Origin: a virus
Lineage: Duplodnaviria; Caudoviricetes
IMG/VR virus record: IMGVR_UViG_3300037010_001838
DNA: 64,000 nt
Reading direction: 5' to 3' (one strand)
Positions within the stretch are counted from its first letter, which is position 1. Each line of letters starts with the position of its first letter. The notes beneath the pieces were generated by a model. The model was not told the DNA's origin and made no database searches. It saw nothing but the letters and a program-made list of their open reading frames with translations. Shown here piece by piece: positions 18,043-39,530 of the stretch. The position numbers were made by a program, and so were the translations under genes.

Positions 18043-18098
18043 TGTTGACTTTTATAAATAAGTCATATATACTTGTATCAACAGTTGAGCAAAGTGCT
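18043..18098 (+). promoter_or_regulatory. tRNA-cluster promoter A with TGACTT-N8-AAGTCA palindrome
   Basis: TTGACT(18045)-17 nt-TATACT(18068); 56-nt block identical to 31399-31454. Confidence 0.9.
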
Positions 18099-18127
18099 CA
18101 ATAAATTTAATTAATGGAGATTTGCAA

Positions 18128-18226
18128 ATGATTTTTACGACTTTCTTTACAGCGTTTACAACCCCTGAGGCATGGCATGCCCCAGAGATGGCTGTGTGCG
18201 CTCTTGAGGAAGGTTGGAAAAACTAA
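18128..18226 (+). CDS. attenuator leader peptide A (MIFTTFFTAFTTPEAWHAPEMAVCALEEGWKN)
   Basis: GGAG RBS, 32 codons rich in Phe/Thr/Ala/Pro/Glu, followed by a terminator. Confidence 0.85.
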   Translation: MIFTTFFTAFTTPEAWHAPEMAVCALEEGWKN

Positions 18227-18244
18227 AAAGTTTCCAGAAATTCT

Positions 18245-18276
18245 AAAAAGGGCGCTCCGAAAAAGCGCCCTTTTTT
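18245..18276 (+). terminator. attenuator terminator A
   Basis: AAAAAGGGCGCT-CCGAAAA-AGCGCCCTTTTTT; 5' arm can instead pair with GCGCTCTT at 18198-18205. Confidence 0.9.
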
Positions 18277-18310
18277 ATTGTTTGTTGATTTTGTAGTAAA
18301 TGTTTTAAAC

Positions 18311-18326
18311 TGTTCATTAACAATTT
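18311..18326 (+). promoter_or_regulatory. boxA-like antitermination element A
   Basis: TGTTCATTAACAATTT versus rrn boxA TGCTCTTTAACA. Confidence 0.7.
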
Positions 18327-18338
18327 GGATTCGTTTGT

Positions 18339-18412
18339 CAGGGTGTGGGAAAGTTTGGTAATCCGCGAGTTTTGGAAACTCGAGACCACTGGTTCAAATC
18401 CAGTCATCCTGA
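18339..18412 (+). tRNA. tRNA-Pro(UGG)
   Basis: CGAGT-TTTGGAA-ACTCG; no encoded CCA; flanks extend the acceptor pairing. Confidence 0.9.
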
Positions 18413-18440
18413 CAAACGAATTCTAAACAAAAAATATTAT

Positions 18441-18516
18441 CTCTGTGTGGTGCAATCTGGTAGCATAGCTGGTCCGGAGCCAGGCGATCAAGGTTCAAAT
18501 CCTTGCATGGAGACCA
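18441..18516 (+). tRNA. tRNA-Pro(CGG)
   Basis: loop TC-CGG-AG with non-canonical C33; CCA. Confidence 0.75.
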
Positions 18517-18523
18517 AACGAAT

Positions 18524-18602
18524 GGGGTTAGGGACTGCTTGGCGTGGTCGCCGCACTTGCAATACGGAAAACAGCTCGGTTCAAATCCGAGTAGCTCCAC
18601 CA
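18524..18602 (+). tRNA. tRNA-Ala(UGC)
   Basis: loop CT-TGC-AA, G3:U70, CCA. Confidence 0.9.
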
Positions 18603-18605
18603 AAT

Positions 18606-18744
18606 GGGTGATTCGGGTGGCTAAGGCGGGTTCGATTCCCGTATGCTCCACCAAAAGAACTTTTAAATGTTGAAGTTCTTTTAATGGGGGCATGATGGTT
18701 GCTGCCGACGGGCAAGACGAGTTCGATTCTCGTATCGTCCACCA
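18606..18744 (+). other. two truncated tRNA-like units (T arm plus CCA end)
   Basis: 18606-18653 and 18686-18744 have a T arm and TCCACCA end but no anticodon arm. Confidence 0.55.
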
Positions 18745-18793
18745 AAGTTTGTAAACCAAAGTTTGTAATTAGAGTGTGCTAAAACTAAAAAAT

Positions 18794-18880
18794 GCACGGG
18801 AAGTCAGATGGATTGGACACCACCCTTTCAAGGTGGCAGGTGAAAACCGTTTGCGGGTTCGAGTCCCGTTCCGTGCTCCA
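18794..18880 (+). tRNA. tRNA-Glu(UUC) with long variable arm
   Basis: CCACC-CTTTCAA-GGTGG, ~16-nt variable region, CCA. Confidence 0.85.
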
Positions 18881-18901
18881 ATTTTCACAAGTAAAACAAC
18901 T

Positions 18902-18971
18902 TTCAGTATAGTGTAATGGTTAGCACGACCCCGTTGGTGGGTTAGAGTGTGGTTCGATTCCCACCTGAATA
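18902..18971 (+). tRNA. degenerate tRNA (Gln UUG-like)
   Basis: D and T arms present; loop CG-TTG-GT and weak acceptor stem. Confidence 0.4.
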
Positions 18972-19042
18972 TGACAACTAGAGAGCAAGCTACTCTTTCA
19001 TTGGTGGTCTGATCAACTAAGATGACAAGTGAAACGATTAAC

Positions 19043-19120
19043 GTAACTGTAGCTCCAATCACGCAGAGCATTTGTCTAAAAAGCAAAGTGTTGCGGGTCC
19101 GAATCCTACTGGTTACACCA
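19043..19120 (+). tRNA. tRNA-Phe-like pseudogene with 6-nt anticodon loop
   Basis: TTTGT-CTAAAA-GCAAA (CTGAAAA lacking G34); CCA. Confidence 0.55.
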
Positions 19121-19149
19121 AACGAATTTACTTACAAATTCGTTATAAA

Positions 19150-19225
19150 GCCGCTATAGCAAAGATGGTCTATGCGACGGACTGAAAATCCGAGGATCTC
19201 CGATCGTTACGGAGTGGCGGCGCCA
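19150..19225 (+). tRNA. tRNA-Phe(GAA)
   Basis: loop CT-GAA-AA, CCA; atypical T loop. Confidence 0.85.
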
Positions 19226-19490
19226 AACAACGCTCCAACAAGTGCTGTGGGTAAGCCTATCGTTAAAAAACGAGATTGAAATCTCGGCTGAGGTTTCATT
19301 GAGTTTTACAAAACGGTGAAAATTCTAGACAGGGTTCGATTCCCTACGAGTGACCAACAACGGACACTAGACATTTGACATAGTGTCCACTGAATTAAAT
19401 CTTGGTTTTCTAGTATACTAAGAGTATAATTAACATTATATTTGTAATTTGCGTTTTCGAATAAATATACCACTTGTTGGAAAAATTAAC

Positions 19491-20093
19491 ATGATCAAAA
19501 ATTTTATGTTTTTAATGATGCTGGTTGTTTCAACACATGTTTACGCTCTTAGTTATTCTATTGTAAATTGGAGACTGATATTGTCGGGTGATATCACGAA
19601 AAAAGATTTAACCGAAATGCCAAAATATCTGACAAATCAAATAGATACAGTTGTGTTTGATAGTGTAAATGGAGGAGATGCTGGAACGACTTTAGAGTTG
19701 CTTCCATTATTTGAAGCAAGACCGAGAGTTCATATCGTTTCTGGGTTTTGTGAAAGTTCCTGTGTAATTATGTTTTTAGCCGGAACAGATAGAATATCTT
19801 ATGGTATAATTGGACTCCATTCTGTATATTCGTATGACACAAACAAGATAAACCCCCATCTAAGCCATCTCTTTAATAAGTATGTTGAAAAAAGACTTGG
19901 TTCAAAGTATGACAAGCAGTTATTTTCTTTTGTTTTTAATAAAATGATAGACCACAATGAATTGTTGATTTTTAGCAAAAATGATTTTGGAAAATTGTGT
20001 GGTTCTGATTCTTGTGGGACACCAATCGCAAGAACTGCTGAAGAACTGGGATTGACAACAGATAAACATTTTATGTTAACATCCAACTGGTAA
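19491..20093 (+). CDS. exported protein, Clp/crotonase-like fold
   Basis: signal peptide ending VYA; DSVNGG and GFCESSC...FLAG motifs. Confidence 0.55.
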   Translation: MIKNFMFLMMLVVSTHVYALSYSIVNWRLILSGDITKKDLTEMPKYLTNQIDTVVFDSVNGGDAGTTLELLPLFEARPRVHIVSGFCESSCVIMFLAGTDRISYGIIGLHSVYSYDTNKINPHLSHLFNKYVEKRLGSKYDKQLFSFVFNKMIDHNELLIFSKNDFGKLCGSDSCGTPIARTAEELGLTTDKHFMLTSNW

Positions 20094-20098
20094 CAAAC

Positions 20099-20172
20099 GC
20101 CGCCTTCGTATAATGGTATTACGCAACCTTTGTAACGTTGATATGTCAGTTCGATTCTGACAGGTGGCTCCA
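20099..20172 (+). tRNA. tRNA-Thr(UGU)
   Basis: loop TT-TGT-AA, CCA. Confidence 0.85.
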
Positions 20173-20266
20173 AATTGATTGTAAAATTTGACTTGCAAGC
20201 AACCGAGTTGGAATAGCTGGAGTGACTCTGGTAGACGGTTCAATTCCGTATCAATCAATTAACAAT

Positions 20267-20342
20267 GGTGACCATAGTGTAAAGGTAGCATTTCTCGCTG
20301 TGAACGAGGAGGAGTGGGTTCAATTTCCCACTGGTCACCCCA
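20267..20342 (+). tRNA. tRNA-His(GUG)
   Basis: loop CT-GTG-AA, G-1:C73, CCA. Confidence 0.9.
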
Positions 20343-20386
20343 ATTCAATCGTTGACTTTTTATAATAAATCTGTAAAATTAGTTTT

Positions 20387-20443
20387 AAGACACTAACAGC
20401 AACTCAAAAAACTTTCTATGCTAAGGAAACTAAACGTGTCTTG
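20387..20443 (+). ncRNA. stem-ACAGCAA family RNA copy E3
   Basis: AAGACAC-TAACAGCAA...GTGTCTT-G directly after a TTGACT/TAAAAT promoter. Confidence 0.6.
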
Positions 20444-20567
20444 TTCACAAAAACAGTAACTAAAACAAGGAGGGTAGGGAAATGCTAAACGCAAACAAAA
20501 ATGGAAGAAACACTTCGGTCTAAGACAAGTAGGAATAACTACCGACAACAAACCAGTTATCAGTGGT

Positions 20568-20804
20568 TTGGATGTATTCAAACACACAGAAACTCTTGGT
20601 ATCCCTCTCGAATTTATAATTGACCATATTAAAGAAAACAACTGTGTTGTAAATTGGTTGGAGTTTTTAACTGTGTCGATTGAGCACGGGTGGAACATAA
20701 AATCAACAATAACAAAAATTGAATATGCTCTCGTTGATGTATACGATAAGGTGTATGCAAACGAAGTAATTTCAAGGTTAAAACAACTAATCGCTTTCAA
20801 TTAG
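20568..20804 (+). CDS. hypothetical protein
   Basis: FKHTETLGIPLE motif; real start probably upstream (~20481) across a frameshift. Confidence 0.5.
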   Translation: MDVFKHTETLGIPLEFIIDHIKENNCVVNWLEFLTVSIEHGWNIKSTITKIEYALVDVYDKVYANEVISRLKQLIAFN

Positions 20805-20899
20805 TAAGGAACATTAAATTCAAATTTCCCCTAAACTGGTTTGATAAATATAAAATGGTTTGATAAATAGTGCTACAATATCGACCCAAAGGAAATCAA

Positions 20900-21946
20900 A
20901 TGTCAAAAGTTCTATTTATATTGAAGCGAAAAGAAAATTACGGTGTGGCTAATTTTCATGAACCAAGAGGATTGTCAACGGGTTTACTAAATTCAGCGTC
21001 ATATGTAAGTGATATGTTAAACAGTATTGGAATTTCATCAGAGATTGAAATTGCTGTCGATAATAATTGCATTGACAGGATTGTAACACAACACAAACCT
21101 TCCGTTGTGATTATAGAAGCTTTGTGGGTTGTTCCAGAAAAATTTGAAATTCTTCAAAAACTTCATCCTAGTATTCGTTGGATTGTAAGACTTCACAGTG
21201 AAGTTCCGTTTATGGCTCAAGAAGGAATTGCATTCGCTTGGATTACTGACTATTTAAAATATAAAAACGTTTACGTTGGTGTCAATTCACTAAGAATGGT
21301 TAAAAGTTTAATAAACCTTCATTTGAATAGTGAGGGGGCTGAAGATAAGTTTTTGTTTATGCCAAACTATTATCCAATTTTAAACACAAAAACAAAAGTT
21401 CCTGATTATAAATCAGAGGAACTCAACATTGGATGCTTTGGGGCTGTTAGACCATTGAAAAATCATATACACCAAGCACTAGCAGCAATTCACTTTGCTG
21501 ACAAAGAAAACAAAAAACTTAATTTTCACATTAACGCTAACAGACTTGAAATGAAAGGGGAACCAATTCTCCACAATTTACGAAGAATGTTTGACCGTCA
21601 GAAACAACATGGTCATAAATTAGTCGAACACGCATGGCAACCAAGAGAAGAATTTTTGGAATTGTGCGGGCAAGTGGATGTTGGAATGCAGGTGTCTTTT
21701 AGTGAAACGTTTAATATTGTTGGGGCGGACCTTATAAATCAAGGGATTCCAGTTGTTTCTTCAAGTGAAATTCCATGGGCAGTAGGATTTTTTGGTGCAA
21801 GTCCAGTAGACCAAGATTCCATCGAACGTGGGTTAAGTAGAGCATATCATTGTCCGAGAACGAATAGATATCTCAACTTCTTGAAATTACATTCTTATTC
21901 AGAAAATAGTTTAAGTGTGTGGAAAAAATTATTTTCTAATGTGTAA
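20900..21946 (+). CDS. glycosyltransferase (GT-B, family 1/4-like)
   Basis: NIGCFGAVRPLKN and VSFSETFNIVGAD motifs. Confidence 0.75.
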   Translation: MSKVLFILKRKENYGVANFHEPRGLSTGLLNSASYVSDMLNSIGISSEIEIAVDNNCIDRIVTQHKPSVVIIEALWVVPEKFEILQKLHPSIRWIVRLHSEVPFMAQEGIAFAWITDYLKYKNVYVGVNSLRMVKSLINLHLNSEGAEDKFLFMPNYYPILNTKTKVPDYKSEELNIGCFGAVRPLKNHIHQALAAIHFADKENKKLNFHINANRLEMKGEPILHNLRRMFDRQKQHGHKLVEHAWQPREEFLELCGQVDVGMQVSFSETFNIVGADLINQGIPVVSSSEIPWAVGFFGASPVDQDSIERGLSRAYHCPRTNRYLNFLKLHSYSENSLSVWKKLFSNV

Positions 21947-21980
21947 TTAATTGAATTAACCACGAGGAGATTAAAGAACT

Positions 21981-22349
21981 ATGAAGATTGAAGAGTTAAT
22001 GGAAAGTTTGGTTGTTTGGAAACCAATTGACGGTTGGTCAAACTATGAAGTTTCTAACACAGGACAAGTTCGTTCGACTAAAACAAATAAAGTTTTGGCC
22101 CAAGAAGAACACTACGGTCACGACAAAAAATCTCCGTATATGAGAGTTCACTTGTCACAAAATGGAGTCAAAAAACACCTTAGAGTGAACAGGTTAGTTG
22201 CATATGCTTTTATTGGACCACCACCAGATCGTAATATGCACGTAGACCATAAAGATAATAACACCAGAAATAACAAATCAACAAATCTTCAGTGGCTTAC
22301 TCCTACTGAAAATTTAAAAAAACGTCTAGCACATAAGTCAGAACATTAA
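21981..22349 (+). CDS. NUMOD4/HNH homing endonuclease
   Basis: WKPIDGWSNYEVSNTGQVRS; VDHKDNNTRNNKSTNLQW. Confidence 0.9.
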   Translation: MKIEELMESLVVWKPIDGWSNYEVSNTGQVRSTKTNKVLAQEEHYGHDKKSPYMRVHLSQNGVKKHLRVNRLVAYAFIGPPPDRNMHVDHKDNNTRNNKSTNLQWLTPTENLKKRLAHKSEH

Positions 22350-22375
22350 TTACAAAAACTGTTTCTATTTCAAAA

Positions 22376-22452
22376 GCCACATAAGCAGAACTGGTGATGC
22401 GCCTGTTTCGTAATCAGGAAATACGTTGGGTTCAAGTCCCCGATGTGGCACC
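22376..22452 (+). tRNA. tRNA-Thr(CGU)
   Basis: CCTGT-TTCGTAA-TCAGG. Confidence 0.85.
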
Positions 22453-22469
22453 TACACAAAAATAACTAA

Positions 22470-22765
22470 ACCTTCTATATCTATAAATTTATCGATAATA
22501 GCGTCTTCAATTAAAGATTTGTTTCCAGAAAAGGTGTCTCATCAAATAGTTGGTCTTGAACTTATTGGTGATGAATTAATCGCAACGCTTGAAACTTTGG
22601 ATACACCAGAAGGAATTGAAGTCAAAACACTGATTGAGAATGTCCCCACTGAATGTCGACCAACCGGAGTTGGGTATATCGTTGATGACCCAACAGGACA
22701 ATCATCTGGAATAATTAAAGAAGAATTTAGGATTTACGAATGTTGCGATAGTTCCAAAAGATTAA
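22470..22765 (+). pseudogene. prohead-protease (gp21-like) domain remnant
   Basis: VSHQIVGLELIGDELIATLETLDTPEG resembles the T4 gp21 VSH...LDTP.G motif; no clear start; boundaries approximate. Confidence 0.4.
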
Positions 22766-22766
22766 T

Positions 22767-22840
22767 AGACCACAAGTGTTACGGTAGCACAGCGGCCTCC
22801 AAAGCCGCGGGTCGGGGTTCGACTCCCTGGTGGTCTGCCA
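22767..22840 (+). tRNA. tRNA-Trp(CCA)
   Basis: GCGGC-CTCCAAA-GCCGC, CCA. Confidence 0.95.
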
Positions 22841-22918
22841 AATGGATGAAAATGTATAGATTTGAAGTGTACGTGATAGATCGAGAAGGTTTTGGTCCAC
22901 ATGGTGCAAGATAATATT

Positions 22919-22995
22919 GGTGATGTGGGTGAAAAGGTAATACCGCCTTGCTCATAACGAGGAACATTCCAGTTCGATTCTGGACATCACCACCA
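22919..22995 (+). tRNA. tRNA-Met/Ile2(CAU)
   Basis: loop CT-CAT-AA, paired G1:C72, CCA. Confidence 0.9.
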
Positions 22996-23024
22996 AGACA
23001 TTAAAACGCAAAAAACGTGTCTTG
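22995..23024 (+). ncRNA. minimal or degenerate stem-ACAGCAA copy E4
   Basis: AAGACAT-TAAAACGCAA-AAAAC-GTGTCTT-G between two tRNAs. Confidence 0.35.
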
Positions 23025-23028
23025 TTGC

Positions 23029-23102
23029 GCCCTTATAGTATATTGGTATTACTCTTCTCTGGTATAGAAGGAAATGCAGTTCAATTCTGCATGAGGGCAC
23101 CA
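23029..23102 (+). tRNA. tRNA-Thr(GGU)
   Basis: CTTCT-CTGGTAT-AGAAG, CCA. Confidence 0.9.
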
Positions 23103-23129
23103 TAAATAATAAAAACTGGAGAATCTAAC

Positions 23130-23366
23130 ATGAAAATTCGTGATTTCTTAAATGAAACTGTTTACAATTTAAATAAAACTGATGATATAGATAAAGGAAA
23201 TATTGATCCAGAGAAATATTATGTGTTTATCAGAACTGTTGACCCAACACTTGTCGGACCTTTTAACACATCAAGTGAAGCACATAAATACATGAATGGA
23301 GAGTATGTTACTGATCGTGTAGAAAAGATCGTTGTAAGTGGAACTGAAGCAAAAAGATTATTTTAA
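23130..23366 (+). CDS. late protein with capsid-targeting-like N-terminus
   Basis: TAAATA upstream, GGAG RBS, MKIRDFLNE. Confidence 0.65.
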   Translation: MKIRDFLNETVYNLNKTDDIDKGNIDPEKYYVFIRTVDPTLVGPFNTSSEAHKYMNGEYVTDRVEKIVVSGTEAKRLF

Positions 23367-23395
23367 ACGAATCCAACTTGTTTGTTGATATTAGT

Positions 23396-23510
23396 GTTGT
23401 TGTATATCAGTTGGTTAGAGATAACGTCTGCTCGAGGGTGTAGCCCCCGGTAAAGGACCGCAACGCTGCAGATAAAACGTTCGCCGATGGTTCGAGTCCA
23501 TCCAACAACA
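23396..23510 (+). tRNA. tRNA-like gene with ~41-nt structured insertion in the anticodon loop
   Basis: normal acceptor, D and T arms; AACGT-CTG[insert]ATAA-AACGTT. Confidence 0.7.
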
Positions 23511-23519
23511 CTAGATTTT

Positions 23520-23593
23520 GGGGCTGTAGTATAAAGGGATTACGGAAGCTTTGCAAGCTTTTTATCGGGGTTCGATTCCCCGCAGTTCCACCA
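23520..23593 (+). tRNA. tRNA-Ala(UGC)
   Basis: loop TT-TGC-AA, G3:U70, CCA. Confidence 0.9.
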
Positions 23594-23742
23594 AATTTTA
23601 CAATACAGGAAAGTAACGGAACCGAGAGCCTGTATCTCTCCGACGTTCCAGCCTTTTAATTCAGTTGTCTTCAAATTTAACATCTGGTATAATCTCTTAT
23701 AATAAATACTTTACAAATATAACTATAATGGAGAACAATATT

Positions 23743-24096
23743 ATGTCAATAAAAGAACTTGTAGCAATAAGTGATACACCATCAAAGATAGAAAAGGTGG
23801 AAAAGATATCTTCTGACATTTTAATAATTGTTCGAGATATGATAGCAACTATGGAACACCATAACCTCAAATATATTACAGCTCCAGACATTGGTGTTAA
23901 CCAACAAATTATCGCAGTTGATGTTACAGATCACGAACTTGGTATTTTAATAGCAGTAAATCCTGAAGTTGTGTACGATGAAGATGAGGTGTTAATTGTT
24001 GAATATGTTGATTTGTCAGGTCAAGTACAATCATCAGTATTCCACAAAAAACTCGCTAGTTTTATTCGCCACGCGTTATATGAAATTGGGGTATAA
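23743..24096 (+). CDS. peptide deformylase-like protein, catalytic motifs degenerate
   Basis: YITAPDIGVNQQIIAVD...AVNPEV matches the PDF N-half; EGCLS missing; HEXXH replaced by HALYE. Confidence 0.7.
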   Translation: MSIKELVAISDTPSKIEKVEKISSDILIIVRDMIATMEHHNLKYITAPDIGVNQQIIAVDVTDHELGILIAVNPEVVYDEDEVLIVEYVDLSGQVQSSVFHKKLASFIRHALYEIGV

Positions 24097-25331: not shown

Positions 25332-26294
25332 GTGTCTCTTTCAAATGTTAAGATTTTCGCTGGAAATTCAAATATTGAATTCGCCACAAAGATAGCAAGT
25401 AGGATGGGGTTAGCACTCGGTAAGGCTAAAGTAAGTAAGTTCAAAGACGGTGAAACATCTGTTGAAATTGAAGAGTCGGTTAGAGGAAGTGTTGTATTTG
25501 TTATTCAGTCAACGTGCAATCCTGTTAACGACAATTTAATGGAATTATTGACAATGACAGACGCATTAAGAAGAGCTGCTGCAAAACGCATTATTGCAGT
25601 TGTTCCTTATTATGGATATTCCAGACAAGATAGGCGTCCAGGATTTAGCCGTGGACCAATTACTTCCCGTCTTGTAGCAGATGTGATTCAAGCAGCTGGT
25701 ATTGACCATTTAGTATCGGTTGATATTCATTCTCTTCAACAACAAGGGTTTTTTACGATTCCCTTTACTAACATTTCCGCTTCCGTTGAATTCATTAAAG
25801 ATATCAGAATGATGTATCGTAAAGAAAAAGAAGAAAAAACACTTATGGTTGTTTCTCCTGATATCGGTGGAGTATTACGTTCTAGACAAATTGCAGAACA
25901 GTTAAACGGTGACACTCAATTAGCTATTGTGGATAAACGTCGCCCACGAGCTGGTGAATCAGAAGTTATGAACATCATCGGTGACGTAGAGGGAAAAGTT
26001 TGTATTATGGTTGATGATATTGTAGATACAGCTGGAACTTTATGTAAGGCTGCGAAATCTTTAAAGGACCATGGTGCTCTTAAAGTTGTTGCTTATGCCA
26101 CTCACCCTGTATTATCAGATAATGCTTACGAGAATTTAACTCATTCAGTGTTAGACGAATTAGTAGTAACAGATACAATTCCACTAATAGGCAATGTTCC
26201 AAATAACATCAGACAATTATCAATTAGTGATTTGGTTGCAGAAACTATACGAAGAATGAGGTCCAAGCAGTCTGTTAGTCAAATATATGTTTAA
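25332..26294 (+). CDS. prs: ribose-phosphate pyrophosphokinase
   Basis: FKDGET, PYYGYSRQDRR, VSPDIGG, MVDDIVDTAGT. Confidence 0.97.
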   Translation: MSLSNVKIFAGNSNIEFATKIASRMGLALGKAKVSKFKDGETSVEIEESVRGSVVFVIQSTCNPVNDNLMELLTMTDALRRAAAKRIIAVVPYYGYSRQDRRPGFSRGPITSRLVADVIQAAGIDHLVSVDIHSLQQQGFFTIPFTNISASVEFIKDIRMMYRKEKEEKTLMVVSPDIGGVLRSRQIAEQLNGDTQLAIVDKRRPRAGESEVMNIIGDVEGKVCIMVDDIVDTAGTLCKAAKSLKDHGALKVVAYATHPVLSDNAYENLTHSVLDELVVTDTIPLIGNVPNNIRQLSISDLVAETIRRMRSKQSVSQIYV

Positions 26295-31564: not shown

Positions 31565-31587
31565 ATTTAATTTAAGGAGCTTTACAA

Positions 31588-31739: not shown

Positions 31740-31750
31740 CGTTTTACAAC

Positions 31751-31851: not shown

Positions 31852-31857
31852 TTTAAT

Positions 31858-31931: not shown

Positions 31932-31944
31932 TTTGAAGTATAAT

Positions 31945-32019
31945 ACCGTCGTAGCTCTCGGGGAGAGCATCTCACTGTCTATGAGATTCAGGTGGGTTCG
32001 AGTCCCATCGGCGGTGCCA
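31945..32019 (+). tRNA. tRNA-Asp(GUC)
   Basis: TCTCA-CTGTCTA-TGAGA, G73, CCA. Confidence 0.9.
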
Positions 32020-32026
32020 AAACAGA

Positions 32027-32103
32027 TGCCCCGTTCATCTGGTGATGACGCAAGGTTTTGACCCTTGTTGATTTTTCGAGTCCGATTCTCGACGGGGTTG
32101 CCA
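32027..32103 (+). tRNA. tRNA-Gln(UUG)
   Basis: CAAGG-TTTTGAC-CCTTG, CCA; atypical D and T loops. Confidence 0.75.
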
Positions 32104-32303
32104 AAAAGGACGAAGTAAAATGAGCAAAGAAGATAAAAAGTAGCAAAAAATGCGTGGGCAGTTGAATAGATTAGAAACAGAATTAAAAAAGGCCCTAATA
32201 AAAAGTCTTCCAACGTTGCTGAAATTGACGTTTCTGAGTATAATAGGTATAATAGAAGGATTCAAGATTTAAGAAAGAAATTGGGGATGTAATGATTTGA
32301 TAT

Positions 32304-32380
32304 GCCCTTGTATATCAGTGGACTAGATTGTCTCGCTTCGAACGAGAAGGTCGGGAGTTCGAATCTCTCCAAGGGTACCA
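32304..32380 (+). tRNA. tRNA-Arg(UCG)
   Basis: TCTCG-CTTCGAA-CGAGA, CCA. Confidence 0.9.
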
Positions 32381-32436
32381 GTATTGTAATAACAGAACTC
32401 TAATATGAGTTAAACGATTTTTTAACCACAAAGGAA

Positions 32437-32799
32437 ATGATGATGAAACAATACTTTTTAGGAAATTTTGGTGATGTAGAAGACGTTGAACACAAATTTC
32501 AGATAGCACTGAATGATGGTGAAAAGATCTTATTAGCTTGGTATTCGTACGAAGATTATAGTGGATCCGCGTTTGTGTTGTATGAGCAAAACGGTAAACT
32601 GTATGAGGTTAATGGATCACACTGTTCGTGTTATGGTTTGGAGGAACAGTTCCAACCAGAAGAAACGTCAGTAGAAGCGTTGGAATATAGAATGAATAAA
32701 GGTACTTTGGGTCGTCGTGTATATTACAGCGAAGAAGGTTCCTTCAAAAATGAATTGTGTGATGTGTTGCAATTATATAAACAAAGACACAGAAAGTAA
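32437..32799 (+). CDS. conserved phage hypothetical protein
   Basis: YSYEDYSGSAFVL...LYEVNGSHCSCYGLEEQFQPE motif. Confidence 0.75.
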   Translation: MMMKQYFLGNFGDVEDVEHKFQIALNDGEKILLAWYSYEDYSGSAFVLYEQNGKLYEVNGSHCSCYGLEEQFQPEETSVEALEYRMNKGTLGRRVYYSEEGSFKNELCDVLQLYKQRHRK

Positions 32800-32823
32800 C
32801 AAACGGACAAAAAATCGTTCAAT

Positions 32824-32899
32824 GGGACCATAACTCAGTTGGTAGAGTATCTGCCCTACAAGCAGACTGTCATCGGTTCGAACCCGGTTGGTCCTACCA
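32824..32899 (+). tRNA. tRNA-Val(UAC)
   Basis: TCTGC-CCTACAA-GCAGA, CCA. Confidence 0.85.
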
Positions 32900-32905
32900 A
32901 ACAAC

Positions 32906-32990
32906 ACCACTGTGGCCGATAGGTTAGGCACAGGACCGATAATCCTGGAGGGAAACCTCGAAGTTGGTTCGATTCCAACCGGTGGTACCA
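32906..32990 (+). tRNA. tRNA-Ile(GAU) with long variable arm
   Basis: CAGGA-CCGATAA-TCCTG; V arm GAGG-GAAA-CCTC; CCA. Confidence 0.8.
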
Positions 32991-33084
32991 AATCAACACC
33001 GTCAAATAGCATTCGGTCTGCTATACCGAAGATGACGAAAGGGTGTGTACAACCTGACAGTAGTAGCGTGTTGTTTTAACTTTT

Positions 33085-33164
33085 GGGTGTGGGGACTGCA
33101 TGGCGTGGTCACCGGACTGTCACTTCGGAAAATCAGGAGGGTTCAATTCCCTTCACACCCGCCA
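33085..33164 (+). tRNA. tRNA-Asp(GUC)
   Basis: CCGGA-CTGTCAC-TTCGG, G73, CCA. Confidence 0.9.
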
Positions 33165-33172
33165 AAAATTAT

Positions 33173-33244
33173 CTCTCATCTAGGGGAACTAGCTTATTGA
33201 CTACGAATCAATTCTGGATCGTTCAACTCGGTCATGGGGGGCCA
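33173..33244 (+). tRNA. tRNA-Arg(ACG)
   Basis: TTGA-CTACGAA-TCAA, CCA; weak D arm. Confidence 0.7.
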
Positions 33245-33324
33245 ACATCATAAACAAATGTTGATATTAGTCTTTGTATTCAATACAATACAATGAGAGA
33301 ACAAACTTTTAAAGATTATTAACT

Positions 33325-33594
33325 ATGTCTAACACATTAAGACACAAAGAGAAGAATAAATCCAAAAGAGCAATACGTCAATATCGGGAAGATACAGATT
33401 GCTCTACCGAACACCCGTTTTGGATAGGTAAAGAAGAATTGGAAAACCCTGAACTGTTAAACATATTATACGATTTTTTGAATAAACCAGGGACTCGGCA
33501 TGGAAACAAAAGACGCTTTGAAGCATACATGAAGTGGAAAAAACGAAAGAAACAAAGAATTAAGTTAAACAAATTAGTTGATGAAATAGAATAA
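33325..33594 (+). CDS. basic hypothetical protein
   Basis: 89 aa, Lys/Arg-rich. Confidence 0.5.
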   Translation: MSNTLRHKEKNKSKRAIRQYREDTDCSTEHPFWIGKEELENPELLNILYDFLNKPGTRHGNKRRFEAYMKWKKRKKQRIKLNKLVDEIE

Positions 33595-33599
33595 TTATT

Positions 33600-33685
33600 G
33601 GAAGATGAACTGTTCTGGTGTTCAGGTTCGTTTGCTAAACGAAACGCTCCGCAAGGGGTGGGGTCCGATTCCTCCGTCTTCCGCC
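33600..33685 (+). tRNA. tRNA-Ser(GCU)
   Basis: TTCGT-TTGCTAA-ACGAA, long V arm, G73. Confidence 0.9.
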
Positions 33686-33840
33686 TGGCACGCAAGATAG
33701 ATATACCGGTTGTCTCTAGTTGGAAATGATGTGAAAAATATTTGTGCACAAATATTGTAGCACGTTTTCATTAACTTTTATGCCGCCAAATTATAAATAT
33801 TCGTTTAATTAAAACACTTTAAAGTAATGCACCTTTATTC

Positions 33841-33912
33841 CCCCTTGCCAATGGAGTGGTGGGACGCCTTCTAAGCGACCTTATGCCTGTTCGATTCAGG
33901 CCAAGGGGACCA
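33841..33912 (+). tRNA. tRNA-Arg(UCU)
   Basis: loop CT-TCT-AA, CCA; compact D arm. Confidence 0.7.
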
Positions 33913-34026
33913 ATACACAATTCTGTGTATTTCTGTAGTACAAATACAACAATGGGGTTTTAGTGTAAACGTGAAAGCACGAGTCAACAGACGAAGAAAA
34001 AAGTCCACAACTTTTTATATCCCACC

Positions 34027-34250
34027 CCAAAAAAGGAATTTTATCATGAACGTTAAAGAGTTAGTGAAAGACCAAACTGTACATTTTCAGTTTTGAATTA
34101 TGGTATAAAACAAATAATGGATTTGAATTTCCTGTTCCAGTATCAGACACAGGGGATGGAGTATTTAACGATTCCGACAAAGCAATATTGTTTATGCGTT
34201 ACATTAGAAAACATTTAGATAATATTGAACAAGGGAAAATTAACAATTAA
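34027..34250 (+). pseudogene. frameshifted small phage gene
   Basis: MNVKELVKDQTVHFQF, then ELWYKTNNGFEFPVPVSDTGDG...AILFMRYIRKHL in another frame. Confidence 0.55.
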
Positions 34251-34678
34251 CCTTTTGTAAAATAATATAGTTCTTTGGTTTTAAACGTTTCCTTATACAT
34301 TTTCCACCCTGGAACTTTAATAGATTGAGCCATTCGGTTGTATAATTTTACTCTGGATGGTTCATCTAATTTTGCAGAAAAGAAGAACGTAACAACTTTT
34401 GGATATAATTCAATCCATTTTTTAATACACTGGATAACAGCAGCCATAACTTGAGAAGCATTTCCGGAACCCGTTATTCCGTGTGACGTTTGATTTCCTT
34501 TTTGAGCACGGAATGCAACGTTCCAAACCTGATTTCCTTTGTCATCATTCGTTTGTGTCTCATAAGCATGGAAAACATATTCCATCTCCCCAACCACGAA
34601 AAACATTTTACATTCCTCATATGTTTTAACGTCAACATGTATTTCTACACTCGAATTAAAAATCTCATTCAATCTCAT
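34247..34678 (-). CDS. late protein with capsid-targeting-like N-terminus
   Basis: MRLNEIFN start; GITGSGNASQVMAAV...SRVKLYNRM. Confidence 0.65.
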   Translation of the reverse strand: MRLNEIFNSSVEIHVDVKTYEECKMFFVVGEMEYVFHAYETQTNDDKGNQVWNVAFRAQKGNQTSHGITGSGNASQVMAAVIQCIKKWIELYPKVVTFFFSAKLDEPSRVKLYNRMAQSIKVPGWKMYKETFKTKELYYFTKG

Positions 34679-35035
34679 TTCATGTCCCAATCGTTATATA
34701 ATATTTATGTTGTCTTTTAACATTAGTGTAAGTATGATGTCGATATAGCAATTTTAGGATAAATCATGAACCAAGGAACTAAAACGTGGGTTAGTACAAA
34801 GACAAAGATGCTGTCGGTGACCATTACGTAATTATGGAATTTTCGTCGAGAACTATACCTGGACTGGTGTGATAAGTTTTTCTTTGGGATGGCTTGGACA
34901 TAACTTATATGTGTATAATACAACACTGAACACCATGGCGCGGTAGCTTCACAAGAATGTGATTCAGTGTGAAAAAGACCTTCCAAGGAACCAACACTGC
35001 ATTGCAACAATAATTATTACGCCAGGAAAAATCAA

Positions 35036-35395
35036 ATGAGAAAGAATGACTTGATTAAAATGTTAACAGAACTTGAAGGCAATCCTGAAGTCGTGTTGTG
35101 GAATGGTATGGTCGGCGATTATATGCACATCGATTCCAAATTCATTGAAGGAAGTTTAGTTAGAATGACATTCGAAAATTACATGAAACAGTGTCAATTT
35201 GAAGAAGGTAGACACCAAAATAACATGAACTTTCAATTTACACCTGAAGAGGTTAAAGAACTGAAAAATTCTTACAAAAGATATGTTGATTGGGAAGACG
35301 ATGCATACGTTACTGACAAGGATATTGCTGAAAAACGATATAGCAGCAAACGAGTTGTATATATCAATTCAAAGCCTCGAGGTATTACATCTTGA
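35036..35395 (+). CDS. hypothetical protein
   Basis: 119-aa ORF with RBS. Confidence 0.65.
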   Translation: MRKNDLIKMLTELEGNPEVVLWNGMVGDYMHIDSKFIEGSLVRMTFENYMKQCQFEEGRHQNNMNFQFTPEEVKELKNSYKRYVDWEDDAYVTDKDIAEKRYSSKRVVYINSKPRGITS

Positions 35396-35495
35396 GACCG
35401 CCTTGGAAGTATAGAGTATTAATATACACTTAAAGAAAATTTAAATGGTGCTCAAAAGTATACAACCGATATGTAACTATAACAGGTGACCCAGA

Positions 35496-35783
35496 ATGAA
35501 CATTTTTGATAAACGTTGGTTAAATGCACGCAAATTCACTGAAAAGGTTAATTCTATTATTTCTGAAAATGAAGACTGCTTTGTGTTTTTTGATGGAGAA
35601 TCGTTTGATGAAATTAAGATCGATGAAGAACATCGGGAAATTTTATTAGTCTCAACTAATTGTGTTGTGTGCATTTACAATGGCGATAAAGATTGCGATG
35701 AAGGTGCTCATACTACATCAAAAGAATGGTTAACGGACACAAAACAACGATTACAAATTTTCAAAGAAATTCAGATTGAGTAA
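35496..35783 (+). CDS. hypothetical protein
   Basis: 95-aa ORF. Confidence 0.55.
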   Translation: MNIFDKRWLNARKFTEKVNSIISENEDCFVFFDGESFDEIKIDEEHREILLVSTNCVVCIYNGDKDCDEGAHTTSKEWLTDTKQRLQIFKEIQIE

Positions 35784-35794
35784 GGAATTTTAAC

Positions 35795-36160
35795 ATGACA
35801 CACAAAATAGCCATAATACACGTCGTTGGTGGGCATTGTAGAGACTACAATGATTATGACAATAAAATTGTTTCAAGTATTTCTGAATGGGAAGATGTAG
35901 ACGATGATACGTTTAATCTATTAGTTAACTCTACCAATCACTTAACAAATAATTATCAAATCATAGAACACGTTAAGACAGACGATATTTTTGTTATAAA
36001 AAATGTTAAACAGTATATTAAGATGGTTGAAGAACAAAAACGTCGAGAAGATGAGGCAGAAGTAGAACGGGCAAAAAAGCACAACTTCGAGCTCAAAAGG
36101 CAAAAGAACGAAAGTTACAAAAACTTAGAAAAGATAAAGAATCTAGGCGTTTATTGTTAG
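35795..36160 (+). CDS. hypothetical protein
   Basis: 121-aa ORF with AAGGA RBS. Confidence 0.6.
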   Translation: MTHKIAIIHVVGGHCRDYNDYDNKIVSSISEWEDVDDDTFNLLVNSTNHLTNNYQIIEHVKTDDIFVIKNVKQYIKMVEEQKRREDEAEVERAKKHNFELKRQKNESYKNLEKIKNLGVYC

Positions 36161-36206
36161 AACAACTTCAAAAAGAATTTAAAGTTGACACCAAAAAGGA
36201 ATAAAA

Positions 36207-36413
36207 ATGGATAAGCGAAAAGTAAAACAAGCAGTAAAACCAGCACCAGTTCCAGGGATTTTTGAAAACCCGATAAATCAGGAGCGGTGGGAATGCAACG
36301 ACATCTATGACATTCGTTCAATCGACGGAGTTGAGTTTCTTCAAGTTCATAAGTATGGAAATGATAGAACAGTGTTAATGCGCAAAGATGCTTTAAAAAA
36401 GGTTAAGAAGTAA
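36207..36413 (+). CDS. hypothetical protein
   Basis: 68-aa ORF with AAGGA RBS. Confidence 0.65.
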   Translation: MDKRKVKQAVKPAPVPGIFENPINQERWECNDIYDIRSIDGVEFLQVHKYGNDRTVLMRKDALKKVKK

Positions 36414-36421
36414 GACTCTTT

Positions 36422-36497
36422 CTCGTCGAAGCCAAAGGGAAAGGCAATAGTTTCCTAAACTATTATTTTGTCAGTTCGAATCTGACCGACGGGACCA
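36422..36497 (+). tRNA. tRNA-Arg(CCU)
   Basis: ATAGT-TTCCTAA-ACTAT, CCA. Confidence 0.85.
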
Positions 36498-37638: not shown

Positions 37639-37667
37639 TTGACTTTCATAAATAAGTCATATATACT
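37639..37667 (+). promoter_or_regulatory. tRNA-cluster promoter C with palindrome
   Basis: TTGACTTTCATAAATAAGTCATATATACT, one base different from promoters A and B. Confidence 0.9.
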
Positions 37668-37703: not shown

Positions 37704-37805
37704 ATGTTCGATTCAACAAAACCAATTTTTATCAATAATGTAAACGTTAATAATAAACGTTCACACGCTGAGGCATTGACTGTTGAAATCAAACTAATCA
37801 TCTGA
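37704..37805 (+). CDS. attenuator leader peptide C (MFDSTKPIFINNVNVNNKRSHAEALTVEIKLII)
   Basis: 33 codons with an NNVNVNNK core; weak RBS; same TTTACAAATG start context as leader B. Confidence 0.8.
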   Translation: MFDSTKPIFINNVNVNNKRSHAEALTVEIKLII

Positions 37806-37825
37806 AAGTAAACAAAAGTTAATAG

Positions 37826-37858
37826 GCCTCGGCAGAGAAATCTCCCGAGGCTTTTTTT
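37826..37858 (+). terminator. attenuator terminator C
   Basis: GCCTCGG-CAGAGAAATCTC-CCGAGGC-TTTTTTT; alternative pairing with GCTGAGGC at 37767-37774. Confidence 0.9.
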
Positions 37859-37859
37859 A

Positions 37860-37875
37860 TGTTCTTTAAAAATTT
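37860..37875 (+). promoter_or_regulatory. boxA-like element C
   Basis: TGTTCTTTAAAAATTT. Confidence 0.7.
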
Positions 37876-37878
37876 AAT

Positions 37879-37952
37879 AGTCCCTTAACTCAATGGTAGA
37901 GTGCTGTCGTGACATGGCAGATACAGAAGTTCAATTCTTCTAGGGACTACCA
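37879..37952 (+). tRNA. tRNA-Val(GAC)
   Basis: CTGTC-GTGACAT-GGCAG, CCA. Confidence 0.85.
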
Positions 37953-37965
37953 AAGTTTCACTTGC

Positions 37966-38050
37966 TCCGGTCGGACTGGCTTGGTGAAGGTCTCGCACTG
38001 TTAATGCGAAGGCTCCGAAAGGAGGCGAGGTTCGATTCCTCGGACCGGAG
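37966..38050 (+). tRNA. tRNA-Asn(GUU) with long variable arm and extended acceptor helix
   Basis: TCGCA-CTGTTAA-TGCGA; V arm CTCC-GAAA-GGAG; flanks pair from 37957 to 38059; no CCA. Confidence 0.8.
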
Positions 38051-38065
38051 CAAGTGGAATTTAAT

Positions 38066-38140
38066 GGGGTGTTAGTGTCAGCGGAAGCACAGAAGACTTT
38101 TAATCTTTTAGGCTGGATTCGAATTCCAGGCGCCCTACCA
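38066..38140 (+). tRNA. tRNA-Lys(UUU)
   Basis: loop CT-TTT-AA, CCA. Confidence 0.9.
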
Positions 38141-38149
38141 AAATATAAT

Positions 38150-38223
38150 GCACCGCAAGCATTAAGGTGATGCAATAGGCTCTTACCCTGTAGAACACGG
38201 CTCAATACCGTGGCGGTGTACCA
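38150..38223 (+). tRNA. tRNA-Lys(CUU)
   Basis: ATAGG-CTCTTAC-CCTGT, CCA; atypical T loop. Confidence 0.8.
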
Positions 38224-38228
38224 TATTT

Positions 38229-38312
38229 CCATCCGACACCGAACTGGTACGGTACGAGACTTTTAATCTCGCGTCTTTGACTATGAGGGTTCGAATCCCT
38301 CCGGGTGGACCA
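38229..38312 (+). tRNA. tRNA-Lys(UUU) with variable-arm hairpin
   Basis: CGAGA-CTTTTAA-TCTCG; V region GTC-TTT-GAC; A73, CCA. Confidence 0.8.
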
Positions 38313-38433
38313 ACATATATAACAAGGAAACGAGGTAGTTGACTATCAAAACGATTCTAACTATAATATTTTAAGAAGCATTTGGGGTTTTCTTAGTTGA
38401 GAGATTGATAAATACTCAAAATTGGAGTATTGT

Positions 38434-39072
38434 ATGAAGTTATTTGAAATTATTGGAGGAGAAGCTCTTCGAAAATCTGATAGTGTTAAAGTTAGAAATG
38501 GTTACACAGACACAGATTCATTAAAACGCCTTGGGGTTGGCCTTCAGGCTGTTGTAGTCGATAGAATAAAGAAGCCTGGAGTGGTAACAAAAGTCTTTGG
38601 TTTTAACACAGAAGAAGATGGGTATCTTCAATTCCTGCGGTTTATTCAAAAACACCAAAATAACCCCTTTTTACCTCGAATTTATAAAATTCGTCTGTAT
38701 CGGAAAGAGTTTGATATATACATCAATAGAACAGATTCTGTTTATGATAATACAGGAGTTGTTGACATGGAAAAATTATTACCATTAAATTCTCCTAAAA
38801 TTAAAGATGCTATTTCTCATCAACTTCAGGCACTCGGAATGAATGAACAGTTTGCCGAAAGTCTTGCAACGAGCCAATTGATTAATTATTATCATGATGC
38901 TGTTGTTAACAAAAAAATTGAGCGCAACGCTCAATTTGAAGAAGTTGTTAATTTCTTACGCACGTATGGTGCTATAGCAGATTTAGACTTACATTCAGGA
39001 AACATTATGGCAAGGTTAACTTCTGTTGGTCCCCAGTTAGTTCTAATTGACCCTATTTGGAAACCTGATTAA
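38434..39072 (+). CDS. protein-kinase-like protein with capsid-targeting-like N-terminus
   Basis: LGVGLQAVV, VVTKV, DLHSGNIM, LVLIDP; MKLFEI start after TAAATA. Confidence 0.75.
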   Translation: MKLFEIIGGEALRKSDSVKVRNGYTDTDSLKRLGVGLQAVVVDRIKKPGVVTKVFGFNTEEDGYLQFLRFIQKHQNNPFLPRIYKIRLYRKEFDIYINRTDSVYDNTGVVDMEKLLPLNSPKIKDAISHQLQALGMNEQFAESLATSQLINYYHDAVVNKKIERNAQFEEVVNFLRTYGAIADLDLHSGNIMARLTSVGPQLVLIDPIWKPD

Positions 39073-39122
39073 AAATATCTGTTGACCCTTTAATCGTTTC
39101 TGTATATAATATTCCTTAATAT

Positions 39123-39198
39123 GTCCCGTTAGCTCAGTTGGATAGAGCACTTGTGTGACATGCAATATACGGCAGTTCAATTCTGCCGGGGACTACCA
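39123..39198 (+). tRNA. tRNA-Val(GAC), acceptor stem out of register
   Basis: loop GT-GAC-AT as at 37879; CCA; imperfect acceptor. Confidence 0.55.
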
Positions 39199-39208
39199 AA
39201 GTTTCAAG

Positions 39209-39326
39209 TGTTCCAGTTGAGCCGCGGGGTGTGGCAGCGGACTGATGCAAAAGCCCCTTCTAACGAGGAGGCTTTGATTAATCCGTGACGAAAGTCTAGT
39301 TTGGTTCGACACCAAAAACTGGAGCA
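39209..39326 (+). ncRNA. atypical tRNA-like RNA with 10-bp acceptor and elongated central arm
   Basis: TGTTCCAGTT/AACTGGAGCA, D-like CCGC/GCGG, GAC-GAAA-GTC arm, T arm TTTGG-TTCGACA-CCAAA. Confidence 0.6.
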
Positions 39327-39341
39327 GTTGGAATTTTATAT

Positions 39342-39457
39342 GGAGGTCTAGCCTAGTGGATAGGCACCGGACTTATTCGAGCATCTGCGAAATCGGGTGT
39401 TCCTGTTAATCCGGACCGTAATGGTATAGCGTGAGTTCGAATCTCCGGGCCTCTACC
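39342..39457 (+). tRNA. tRNA-Asn(GUU)-like with 31-nt hairpin insertion in the anticodon loop
   Basis: CCGGA-CT[39374-39404]GTTAA-TCCGG; V arm hairpin; imperfect T stem. Confidence 0.7.
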
Positions 39458-39466
39458 GAATTATTT

Positions 39467-39530
39467 GGATTGCAAGCATTAAGATGGTGCAGTGAGCTTT
39501 CACCTCACAGAACACGGATTGTTGTTGTGG
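39467..39530 (+). pseudogene. tRNA-Glu(UUC)-like 5' portion, 3' end lost
   Basis: GTGAG-CTTTCAC-CTCAC anticodon arm intact; no acceptor 3' strand. Confidence 0.55.

Follow-up and report, generated by a model that had tools for sequence, protein, structure and literature searches.

Leader-like open reading frames matched to downstream tRNA arrays suggest ribosome-mediated attenuation of tRNA genes in uncultured giant phages

What decides when a phage makes its own tRNAs? The purpose of phage tRNA genes has been debated for fifty years, codon compensation being set against the replacement of tRNAs destroyed by host defences, and to our knowledge the genes have been treated as constitutively expressed cargo. 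The question is posed directly by a stretch of 64,000 nucleotides (nt) from an uncultured member of the Caudoviricetes (IMG/VR record IMGVR_UViG_3300037010_001838), the whole of which is called the window below. Between positions 18,043 and 39,530 it carries three arrays of tRNA genes, each preceded by a small open reading frame (ORF) and an intrinsic terminator. A sequence-only reading of this region had proposed that the small ORFs encode leader peptides rich in codons for the tRNAs behind them, and that each leader gates its array by attenuation. The analysis presented here supports leader-peptide attenuation at every point where a prediction could be examined in sequence: the Shine-Dalgarno (SD) sequences and start codons, a frame-specific match between leader and array, mutually exclusive RNA helices, the position of the switch relative to the matched codons, conservation in relatives, and the fate of tRNAs that moved between arrays.

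The same cassette was described three times in that reading and is indeed present three times, at 18045 (cassette A), 31401 (B) and 37639 (C), on the + strand as are all cassette and array features given here. The order is promoter, SD sequence with an ORF of 31-33 codons, intrinsic terminator, boxA-like element and tRNA array. The promoters (18045-18073, 31401-31429 and 37639-37667) belong to a 30-nt sequence common to all cassettes, TTGACTTT(T/C)ATAAATAAGTCATATATACTT, which occurs exactly three times in the window with 0 occurrences expected by chance; that of cassette A reads TTGACT-17-TATACT. Leader ORF A (MIFTTFFTAFTTPEAWHAPEMAVCALEEGWKN, 18128-18226) has 32 codons and ends in TAA, leader ORF B (MFVTRQQQSISIIRRRQVRRDSDIIMSGGWV, 31588-31683) has 31 codons and ends in TAG, and leader ORF C (MFDSTKPIFINNVNVNNKRSHAEALTVEIKLII, 37704-37805) has 33 codons and ends in TGA. 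Their SD sequences stand 7-10 nt 5' of the start codon (GGAG at 18116-18119 for A, AAGGAG at 31574-31579 for B). Strong terminators follow at 18245-18281 (a 12-bp stem and then a T tract), 31707-31745 and 37824-37858. Between each terminator and the first tRNA lies a boxA-like sequence, TGTTC(A/T)TTAA(A/C)AATTT, starting at 18311, 31751 and 37860. The individual elements are TGTTCATTAACAATTT (18311-18326), which agrees at 11/13 positions with the E. coli rrn boxA consensus TGCTCTTTAACAA, TGTTCATTAAAAATTT (31751-31766) and TGTTCTTTAAAAATTT (37860-37875). The first tRNA starts a few to about 12 nt 3' of boxA.

ARAGORN and Rfam together give 32 to 35 tRNA genes in the window, all on the + strand and mostly in the three arrays, and the tRNA content of these arrays is as first read. 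Array A (18339-23593) comprises Pro x2, Ala, Glu, Phe x2, Thr, His, Thr, Trp, Met, Thr and Ala, with ORFs between the tRNAs that include an HNH endonuclease at 21981-22349. Array B (31777-36497) comprises Gln x3, Asp x2, Arg(UCG), Val(UAC), Ile(GAU), Arg(ACG), Ser(GCU) and Arg(UCU); a distal Arg(CCU) at 36422 stands 2.5 kb beyond the rest. Two of these genes are less readily detected: Ser(GCU) at 33600-33685 is seen only with relaxed ARAGORN settings and as a sub-threshold Rfam match, and Arg(ACG) at 33173 only with relaxed ARAGORN. Array C (37879-39457) comprises Val(GAC), Asn and Lys x3, with a second Val-Asn-Lys set at 39122-39457, 3' of a promoter-like site at 39082, in which the Asn and Lys genes carry inserts in the anticodon loop.

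When background amino-acid frequencies are taken from the long ORFs of the phage, the leaders are enriched in residues for which a tRNA is encoded in their own array: 24/31 residues in leader A (binomial P 3e-7), 24/30 in leader B (1e-6) and 11/32 in leader C (0.04). The enrichment is concentrated in one unbroken run per leader, 20 residues long in A (P 1e-9), 21 in B (3e-9) and 8 in C (5e-5). Against non-cognate arrays the longest runs of leaders A-C are 1-4 residues, and they stay at 5 or fewer across four leaders when a fourth, introduced below, is included. The run of leader A, FTTFFTAFTTPEAWHAPEMA (codons 3-22, 18134-18193), contains all eight isotypes of array A (F, T, A, P, E, W, H and M). 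That of leader B, RQQQSISIIRRRQVRRDSDII (codons 5-25, 31600-31662), contains all six of array B (R, Q, S, I, V and D), and that of leader C, NNVNVNNK (codons 11-18, 37734-37757), all three of array C (N, V and K). The lists of residues absent from each leader, as given in the sequence-only reading, are also correct. Long runs are confined to the frame set by the SD sequence and the ATG; reading the two alternative frames or the antisense strand yields runs of 2-5. Among 187 ATG ORFs of 25-40 codons in the window, no other ORF reaches the scores of leaders A and B.

The record nearest to the window genome, G001 (IMG/VR, 179 kb, estimated half complete), is near-identical to it, at about 94% protein identity, and contains the three window cassettes together with a fourth, D, which would fall a few kb before position 1 of the window genome. 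Found outside the window, cassette D serves as an out-of-sample test. Its leader is MNTNGLGYCLSLGSLSILDKSQVAVWGITKM, with the core GLGYCLSLGSLSIL, and its array encodes Tyr, Cys, Leu(UAG, UAA, CAA), Gly, Ser(AGA, UGA) and Ile(UAU). Cassettes A-C lack precisely four amino acids, Gly, Leu, Cys and Tyr, and array D supplies all of them. The matched run of leader D is 14 residues long (P 3e-6) and holds every isotype of its array, and the four leaders together cover all 20 amino acids. Between the window and G001 the leaders differ at three nucleotides, all of them synonymous.

Relatives were found in four lineages only, with 13 cassettes in total: the window with G001, then G002 (56 kb, with the same promoter and leader DNA about 60% identical), G003 (379 kb, with a near-copy in a metagenome, L041; 33% identity on a protein of 1044 amino acids) and G006 (257 kb, reached via a conserved HNH protein with 73% identity). 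An SD sequence (GGAG, AAGGA or AAGGAG) stands 7-10 nt before an ATG or GTG in 13/13 cassettes, and the ORFs have 18-35 codons. Terminators, measured in ten cassettes, have a stem of 9-12 bp and a T tract and lie 16-25 nt past the leader stop codon. A boxA-like element follows 10/13 terminators, always between terminator and first tRNA, and agrees with the rrn consensus at 9 to 12 of 13 positions. The design is thus kept in all lineages, and the leader peptides drift yet stay within the amino-acid set of their array, as in the A-type leaders FTTFFTAFTTPEAWHAPEMA, TFTTVFTFEHTPAEAWHAPAMP, AAEHTFAEAFTAPAEP and TTFTTFFAPEHTPATTWFAAEP. The sequence-only reading expected leader codons to correlate with downstream anticodons in homologous cassettes, and this correlation is kept in G002, G003 and G006.

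The most informative cases are those in which tRNAs have changed arrays. In G003 one array unites the B and C tRNAs (Val, Thr, Val, Lys, Arg, Ile, Arg, Asn, Gln, Asp and further tRNAs) behind a single leader, TaTQTKRIaNVVDNQR. The same genome has Trp and Lys(UUU) among the Leu and Tyr tRNAs of another array (L), whose leader LLtLLKLWLgYK holds W and AAA; its A-type leader has lost W. The two Lys tRNAs are separated in the same manner, the BC leader using AAG with Lys(CUU) in its array and AAA going with Lys(UUU). In G006 the Lys tRNAs are in the D-type array, and the leader of that array, LKSKSYCSKLLGGLS, has gained three Lys (run 15, P 2e-7), while Met and Asn tRNAs are in the B-type array with M and N in its leader. 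Leader content has mostly followed the tRNAs moved between arrays (Lys, Asn, Met, Trp and Thr).

It could be supposed that the small ORFs are non-regulatory, either chance ORFs or peptides with another role that happen to lie between a promoter and a leaky terminator, and that the match is coincidental or compositional. Leader C and the BC leader of G003 are individually weak enough to fit such a view (whole-leader binomial P 0.04 and 0.05; BC run 0.17). The statistics as a whole strongly disfavour it, and we consider it very improbable: runs with P from 1e-9 to 5e-5 are found in four cassettes of one genome, for A and B only the leaders themselves reach their score among the 187 small ORFs, and the match is specific to one frame, is kept while the peptide changes, and follows the re-assorted arrays in G003 and G006.

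The searches behind this set of relatives were otherwise negative. The promoter pattern had no match in metagenome contigs, and the leader-A, leader-B and leader-D DNA patterns found G001, G002 and G003 only in IMG/VR. A match to the leader-A pattern in metagenome contigs (L039) was rejected as a false positive, being GC-rich coding sequence without leader features. No relative was found among GenBank phages. Other terminators that lie just 5' of tRNAs (G002 at 38104, G003 near 9771 of the reversed first 20 kb, G001 at 45019) proved to be the ends of genes or of structured RNAs and were not counted as cassettes. Within the reversed first 20 kb of G003, at about 9350-9770 (L036), some 400 nt of GC-rich sequence without an ORF end in a terminator followed by a Thr tRNA, and may be a large structured RNA. 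In G006 (L048, 2260-2490) a Met(CAU) tRNA has the same type of promoter without a leader ORF or terminator. As leaders need initiation, an ungated supply of this tRNA would make sense if it is the initiator.

Could the RNA of these cassettes act as a switch? Folding predicts mutually exclusive 1:2, 2:3 and 3:4 helices in the 13 cassettes of the four lineages, and the ribosome-free fold of every leader has an extended hairpin within the ORF (1:2) together with the terminator. In attenuator A, region 1 (18149-18155) is predicted to pair with region 2 when the ribosome is absent (minimum free energy -63.4 kcal/mol); region 2, the antiterminator strand GCGCTCTT (18198-18205), can instead pair with AAGGGCGC in the 5' arm of the terminator (18248-18255). 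In attenuator B, region 1 is at about 31596-31603 and region 2 (31670-31679) pairs with 31711-31720 of the terminator 5' arm. In attenuator C, region 2 (37767-37781) has a core GCTGAGG (37768-37774) that pairs with CCTCGGC (37826-37832); here the 1:2 helix is weak. The predicted 2:3 state, at -15 to -28 kcal/mol, and the terminator hairpin, at -15 to -19, are of comparable stability.

To model a ribosome, we hid the RNA as far as its front edge, 12 nt beyond the A site, and folded the transcript as it is immediately before polymerase exposes the terminator 3' arm; our own assumption here is that base pairs cannot bridge the ribosome from one side to the other. With the A site inside the matched run, 7-10 nt of the terminator 5' arm are predicted to pair with region 2, which lies a few codons 3' of the run. 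Once the A site has left the run, the ribosome covers region 2 and the terminator 5' arm is predicted to be free. In 13/13 cassettes (ten from the window, G001, G002 and G003, and three from G006) this switch point is no more than a few codons from where the matched run ends.

The complementarity between a leader and its own terminator 5' arm exceeds that of dinucleotide shuffles in the ten cassettes compared, with z from -1.7 to -5.3; shuffles as good were obtained 0-1 times in 500 for six cassettes and 4-32 times in 500 for the four weakest. Cassettes B and C each reach z -5.3 with 0/500 shuffles as good. When terminator arms are swapped between paralogous cassettes the own pair is not always the top score, because several of the GC-rich arms resemble each other. 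Compensatory changes in the stems, for which the sequence-only reading had also looked to related phages, were found in part: there are some, few in number and read by eye, and covariation from automatic alignment was unreliable because indels shift the helices (terminator B was misaligned by one base). We therefore relied on independent folds for each homologue and on the few pairs read by eye. Between window/G001 and G002 these are a G-C to A-T change in antiterminator D, where the terminator itself has a mismatch, a T-A to C-G change in antiterminator B with a matching change in the terminator 3' arm, and two compensatory pairs in terminator B.

These helices also bear on a different use of the same parts, in which leader translation acts via Rho-dependent termination or via processing or stability of the precursor, boxA being the main antitermination device and the hairpin a constitutive partial terminator. 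The boxA-like element behind 10/13 terminators would suit this, and the arrays are long and mostly untranslated and so are natural Rho targets. Such a scheme leaves unexplained why an antiterminator strand complementary to each own terminator arm has been kept, and why in 13 cassettes the position of that strand corresponds to the end of the matched run. We regard it as improbable.

How finely do the leaders resolve the tRNAs? For isotypes present in two arrays, each leader mostly uses codons read by the anticodon of its own array. For serine, AGT x3 occurs in the leader B run with Ser(GCU), and TCA, TCT and TCC in the leader D run with Ser(AGA, UGA); for isoleucine, ATT/ATC occurs in leader B with Ile(GAU) and ATA in leader D with Ile(UAU); for valine, GTA/GTG occurs in leader B with Val(UAC) and GTT x2 in leader C with Val(GAC). 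When synonymous codons were resampled according to phage usage, the own array could read 66/76 in-set codons, where 59.8 +/- 2.8 were expected (P 0.02). The codon-level signal is real but modest, and the main signal is at the amino-acid level.

That modesty leaves room for a reading with the same attenuator hardware in which the signal is amino-acid starvation, sensed as uncharged tRNA, and tRNA transcription is tied to the amino-acid status of the host. A stalled ribosome cannot distinguish an absent from an uncharged tRNA, the closest known systems (ilvGMEDA, thr and his) sense charging, and specificity beyond the amino acid is limited, with P 0.02 for codon readability and 0.2 for anticodon coverage. 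We nevertheless think starvation an unlikely signal. Extra tRNA does not relieve amino-acid starvation, which would leave the feedback loop open; the division of amino acids among the leaders goes by tRNA array and not by metabolic family; and the split isotypes (Ser, Ile, Val and Lys) use codons read by the anticodon of their own array.

Our favoured reading, to which we give a probability of about 0.78, is ribosome-mediated attenuation of the trp/ilv type acting as negative feedback on tRNA supply; leader translation, stalling, regulated read-through and the role of boxA are the steps that we infer. RNA polymerase would start at the strong sigma70-type promoter, and the short leader would be transcribed and translated. 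A ribosome stalled anywhere in the central run, where a tRNA type encoded downstream is scarce, uncharged or damaged, would break helix 1:2. The freed region 2 would pair with the terminator 5' arm (2:3), the terminator would be blocked, and polymerase would read through, pass the boxA-like element and transcribe the array. The boxA-like element probably makes the polymerase resistant to premature termination on a long untranslated transcript. With fast decoding the ribosome would cover region 2, the 3:4 terminator would form and transcription would end; in the absence of translation, 1:2 and 3:4 would likewise give termination. As the output is the very class of tRNA whose shortage causes the stall, the circuit would constitute negative feedback on tRNA supply.

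What the circuit responds to in infection is a further matter. Many amino acids are sampled once or twice, rather than one many times, an arrangement better suited to the severe loss of single tRNAs than to graded amino-acid starvation. Host anticodon nucleases as the trigger are compatible with the findings and not supported by evidence here, and are speculative; a homeostat that tops up the tRNA pool at the start of infection and is then switched off fits the findings equally well. More tentatively, at rather less than even odds, the four attenuators may form a complete sensor of decoding capacity, largely resolved to isoacceptors, in which only the block whose host counterparts are depleted is switched on, as an inducible and self-limiting counter-defence and not a constitutive supplement. 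Under such a scheme depletion could come from anticodon nucleases, from other defences that target tRNA, or from the phage's own shut-off of the host.

Several observations weigh against attenuation as set out above. Leader C matches its array at just 11/32 residues overall, and the Pro, Ile and Phe codons right before its run are unserved by array C; the leader is weak outside its eight-codon core, and these codons sit where stalling should also open attenuator C. His, Met, Cys and Tyr are each sampled by one codon, which would give low sensitivity to mild shortage. Anticodon coverage (32/35) is no better than amino-acid content implies (P 0.2), and the anticodons CGG, CCU and CUU are unsampled by their leaders. 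Among the relatives, leader A of G002 keeps a Trp codon where no Trp tRNA was found on that fragment, and leader B of G006 has three Thr and two Arg codons where no Thr or nearby Arg tRNA was found. As the lineages share ancestry, the 13 cassettes cannot be counted as independent trials; what is independent is the specificity within genomes and the re-assortments. With regard to the switch itself, the antiterminator of cassette A is just marginally better than shuffles (z -1.7, 32/500). In about half of the cassettes, A, C and D among them, region 2 sits 4-9 codons 5' of the stop codon and not under the terminating ribosome as in trp. This placement makes the masking assumption matter, and in such cassettes termination in the fast state is a matter of timing and steric exclusion. 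Arrays B and C also contain strong promoter-like sites (11/12; 32225, 38339 and 39082), from which distal tRNAs may be transcribed independently of the gate. Finally, among sequencing runs recorded as RNA, none contains this stretch.

The hardware of the cassettes is that of a classical leader-peptide attenuator. Enterobacterial amino-acid operons (ilvGMEDA for Ile/Leu/Val, thr for Thr/Ile, and those with trpL, hisL, pheL and leuL) have such attenuators, and the ilvGMEDA and thr types share with the phage cassettes an SD-led 5' ORF, a cluster of regulatory codons, the 1:2, 2:3 and 3:4 helices with an intrinsic terminator, and the sensing of several amino acids by one leader. The phage cassettes are without sequence homology to them; Rfam matches of His_leader on cassette C and Thr_leader on cassette B are weak and below threshold. 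They also differ in regulating tRNA genes and not biosynthetic enzymes, and in sensing three to eight amino acids, often by one or two codons each, where the classical leaders have long runs of one to three. Furthermore, all 20 amino acids are divided among the four phage leaders, the elements are encoded by a phage, and a boxA lies 3' of the terminator. As to the trp type, the position of region 2 5' of the stop codon in about half of the phage cassettes is again a difference.

Closer in output is the E. coli pheST attenuator, in which a leader with Phe codons controls phenylalanyl-tRNA synthetase and attenuation thus acts on a component of the translation apparatus; pheST senses one amino acid, controls a synthetase protein, and is cellular and not viral. 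T-box riboswitches of Firmicutes likewise sense the tRNA pool and choose between terminator and antiterminator 5' of translation-related genes. However, a T-box binds uncharged tRNA directly, by means of a single specifier codon plus the T-box sequence, and involves no ribosome, while the phage cassettes have an ORF with SD and ATG. A T-box was considered and rejected here, none being among the matches of a sub-threshold Rfam scan (E up to 0.5) of 17500-40000. The boxA-like element, TG(C/T)TC(A/T)TTAA(A/C)AA, resembles the NusB/NusE-binding type of rrn operons in heading a long untranslated operon of stable RNA, and differs in standing 3' of the putative leader-peptide attenuator.

Phage-encoded tRNAs are reported to replace host tRNAs depleted or cleaved in infection, by anticodon nucleases or PARIS (PMC10264068, PMC11464382). 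The element described here would add a layer of sensing and feedback to such countermeasures. A text search of PMC10264068 gave no mention of attenuators, leaders, terminators or promoters, and full-text searches of PubMed Central and bioRxiv gave no description of attenuation of tRNA genes. What is new is the use of tRNA arrays as the regulated genes, their place in a phage, the division of the whole genetic code between four leaders, and a boxA behind the terminator.

Some further features of the cassettes were noted. In cassette B a structured insert of 155 nt in the 5' untranslated region (31431-31585, + strand; fold z -2.0) lies between promoter and SD sequence, and in a strain variant in run X4 it is replaced by a short 31-nt spacer as in the other cassettes. 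The transcripts of cassettes A and B start with a common hairpin, GTTGAGCAAAGTGCT(C/T)AA (18084-18102 and 31440-31458, + strand), which is also found in 3/3 G006 cassettes and is absent from cassettes C and D. The window, G003 and G006 also share an ATAAATA motif in the promoter spacer. Just 5' of cassette A, at 17753-18032 (+ strand), a near-consensus promoter (TTGACT-17-TATAAT) is followed by about 250 nt without a long ORF. This region has a moderately stable fold (z -2.0) and no Rfam match, and may be a small RNA gene.

Many of the tRNA genes are oversized. Asn and Lys copies of array C (39212-39325 and 39342-39457) have anticodon-loop inserts of 31-33 nt, and one contig of run X4 is without 33 nt at 39244-39278, i.e. 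without one of the inserts. Glu, Ile, Asn and Lys genes of 84-87 nt (18794-18880, 32906-32990, 37966-38051 and 38229-38312) have an extra arm. Two truncated tRNA-like pieces in array A (18606-18653 and 18686-18744, + strand) consist of an acceptor stem and T arm with a CCACCA end, and give weak matches to tmRNA models. A tRNA with anticodon CUA (an amber suppressor, labelled Pyl by ARAGORN) is located at 3365-3438 (+ strand) and prompted us to consider recoding of TAG; this was unsupported by ORF lengths in the region. TAG is the rarest stop (6/62). The stop codon of leader B is TAG, and amber suppression would therefore extend leader B through the terminator.

Elsewhere in the window, scattered tRNA genes 5' of the arrays surround a full-length GOLLD RNA (4606-5051, + strand; Rfam RF02032, 198.8 bits, E 1e-54). 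A protein of 500 amino acids with DUF2828 and DUF7788 domains (6130-7632, + strand) adjoins the GOLLD RNA and tRNAs. A peptide deformylase-like gene (23665-24096, + strand) stands directly 3' of array A, a ribose-phosphate pyrophosphokinase gene (25332-26294, + strand) between arrays A and B, and a gene of the IS605 OrfB / TnpB type, with a Cas12f-like TNB domain, at 61537-62736 (- strand).

The design recurs in four lineages of giant phages, all uncultured, whose sources are mats, sediments and vents. If the attenuation reading is true, such a phage gauges decoding capacity codon class by codon class and makes tRNAs on demand, and a textbook mechanism is extended to a new class of output, stable RNA genes. 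The leaders would be compact natural sensors of tRNA availability, useful for synthetic biology. They would also offer a direct read-out of which tRNAs limit infection, and the depletion hypothesis of phage tRNAs would become testable.

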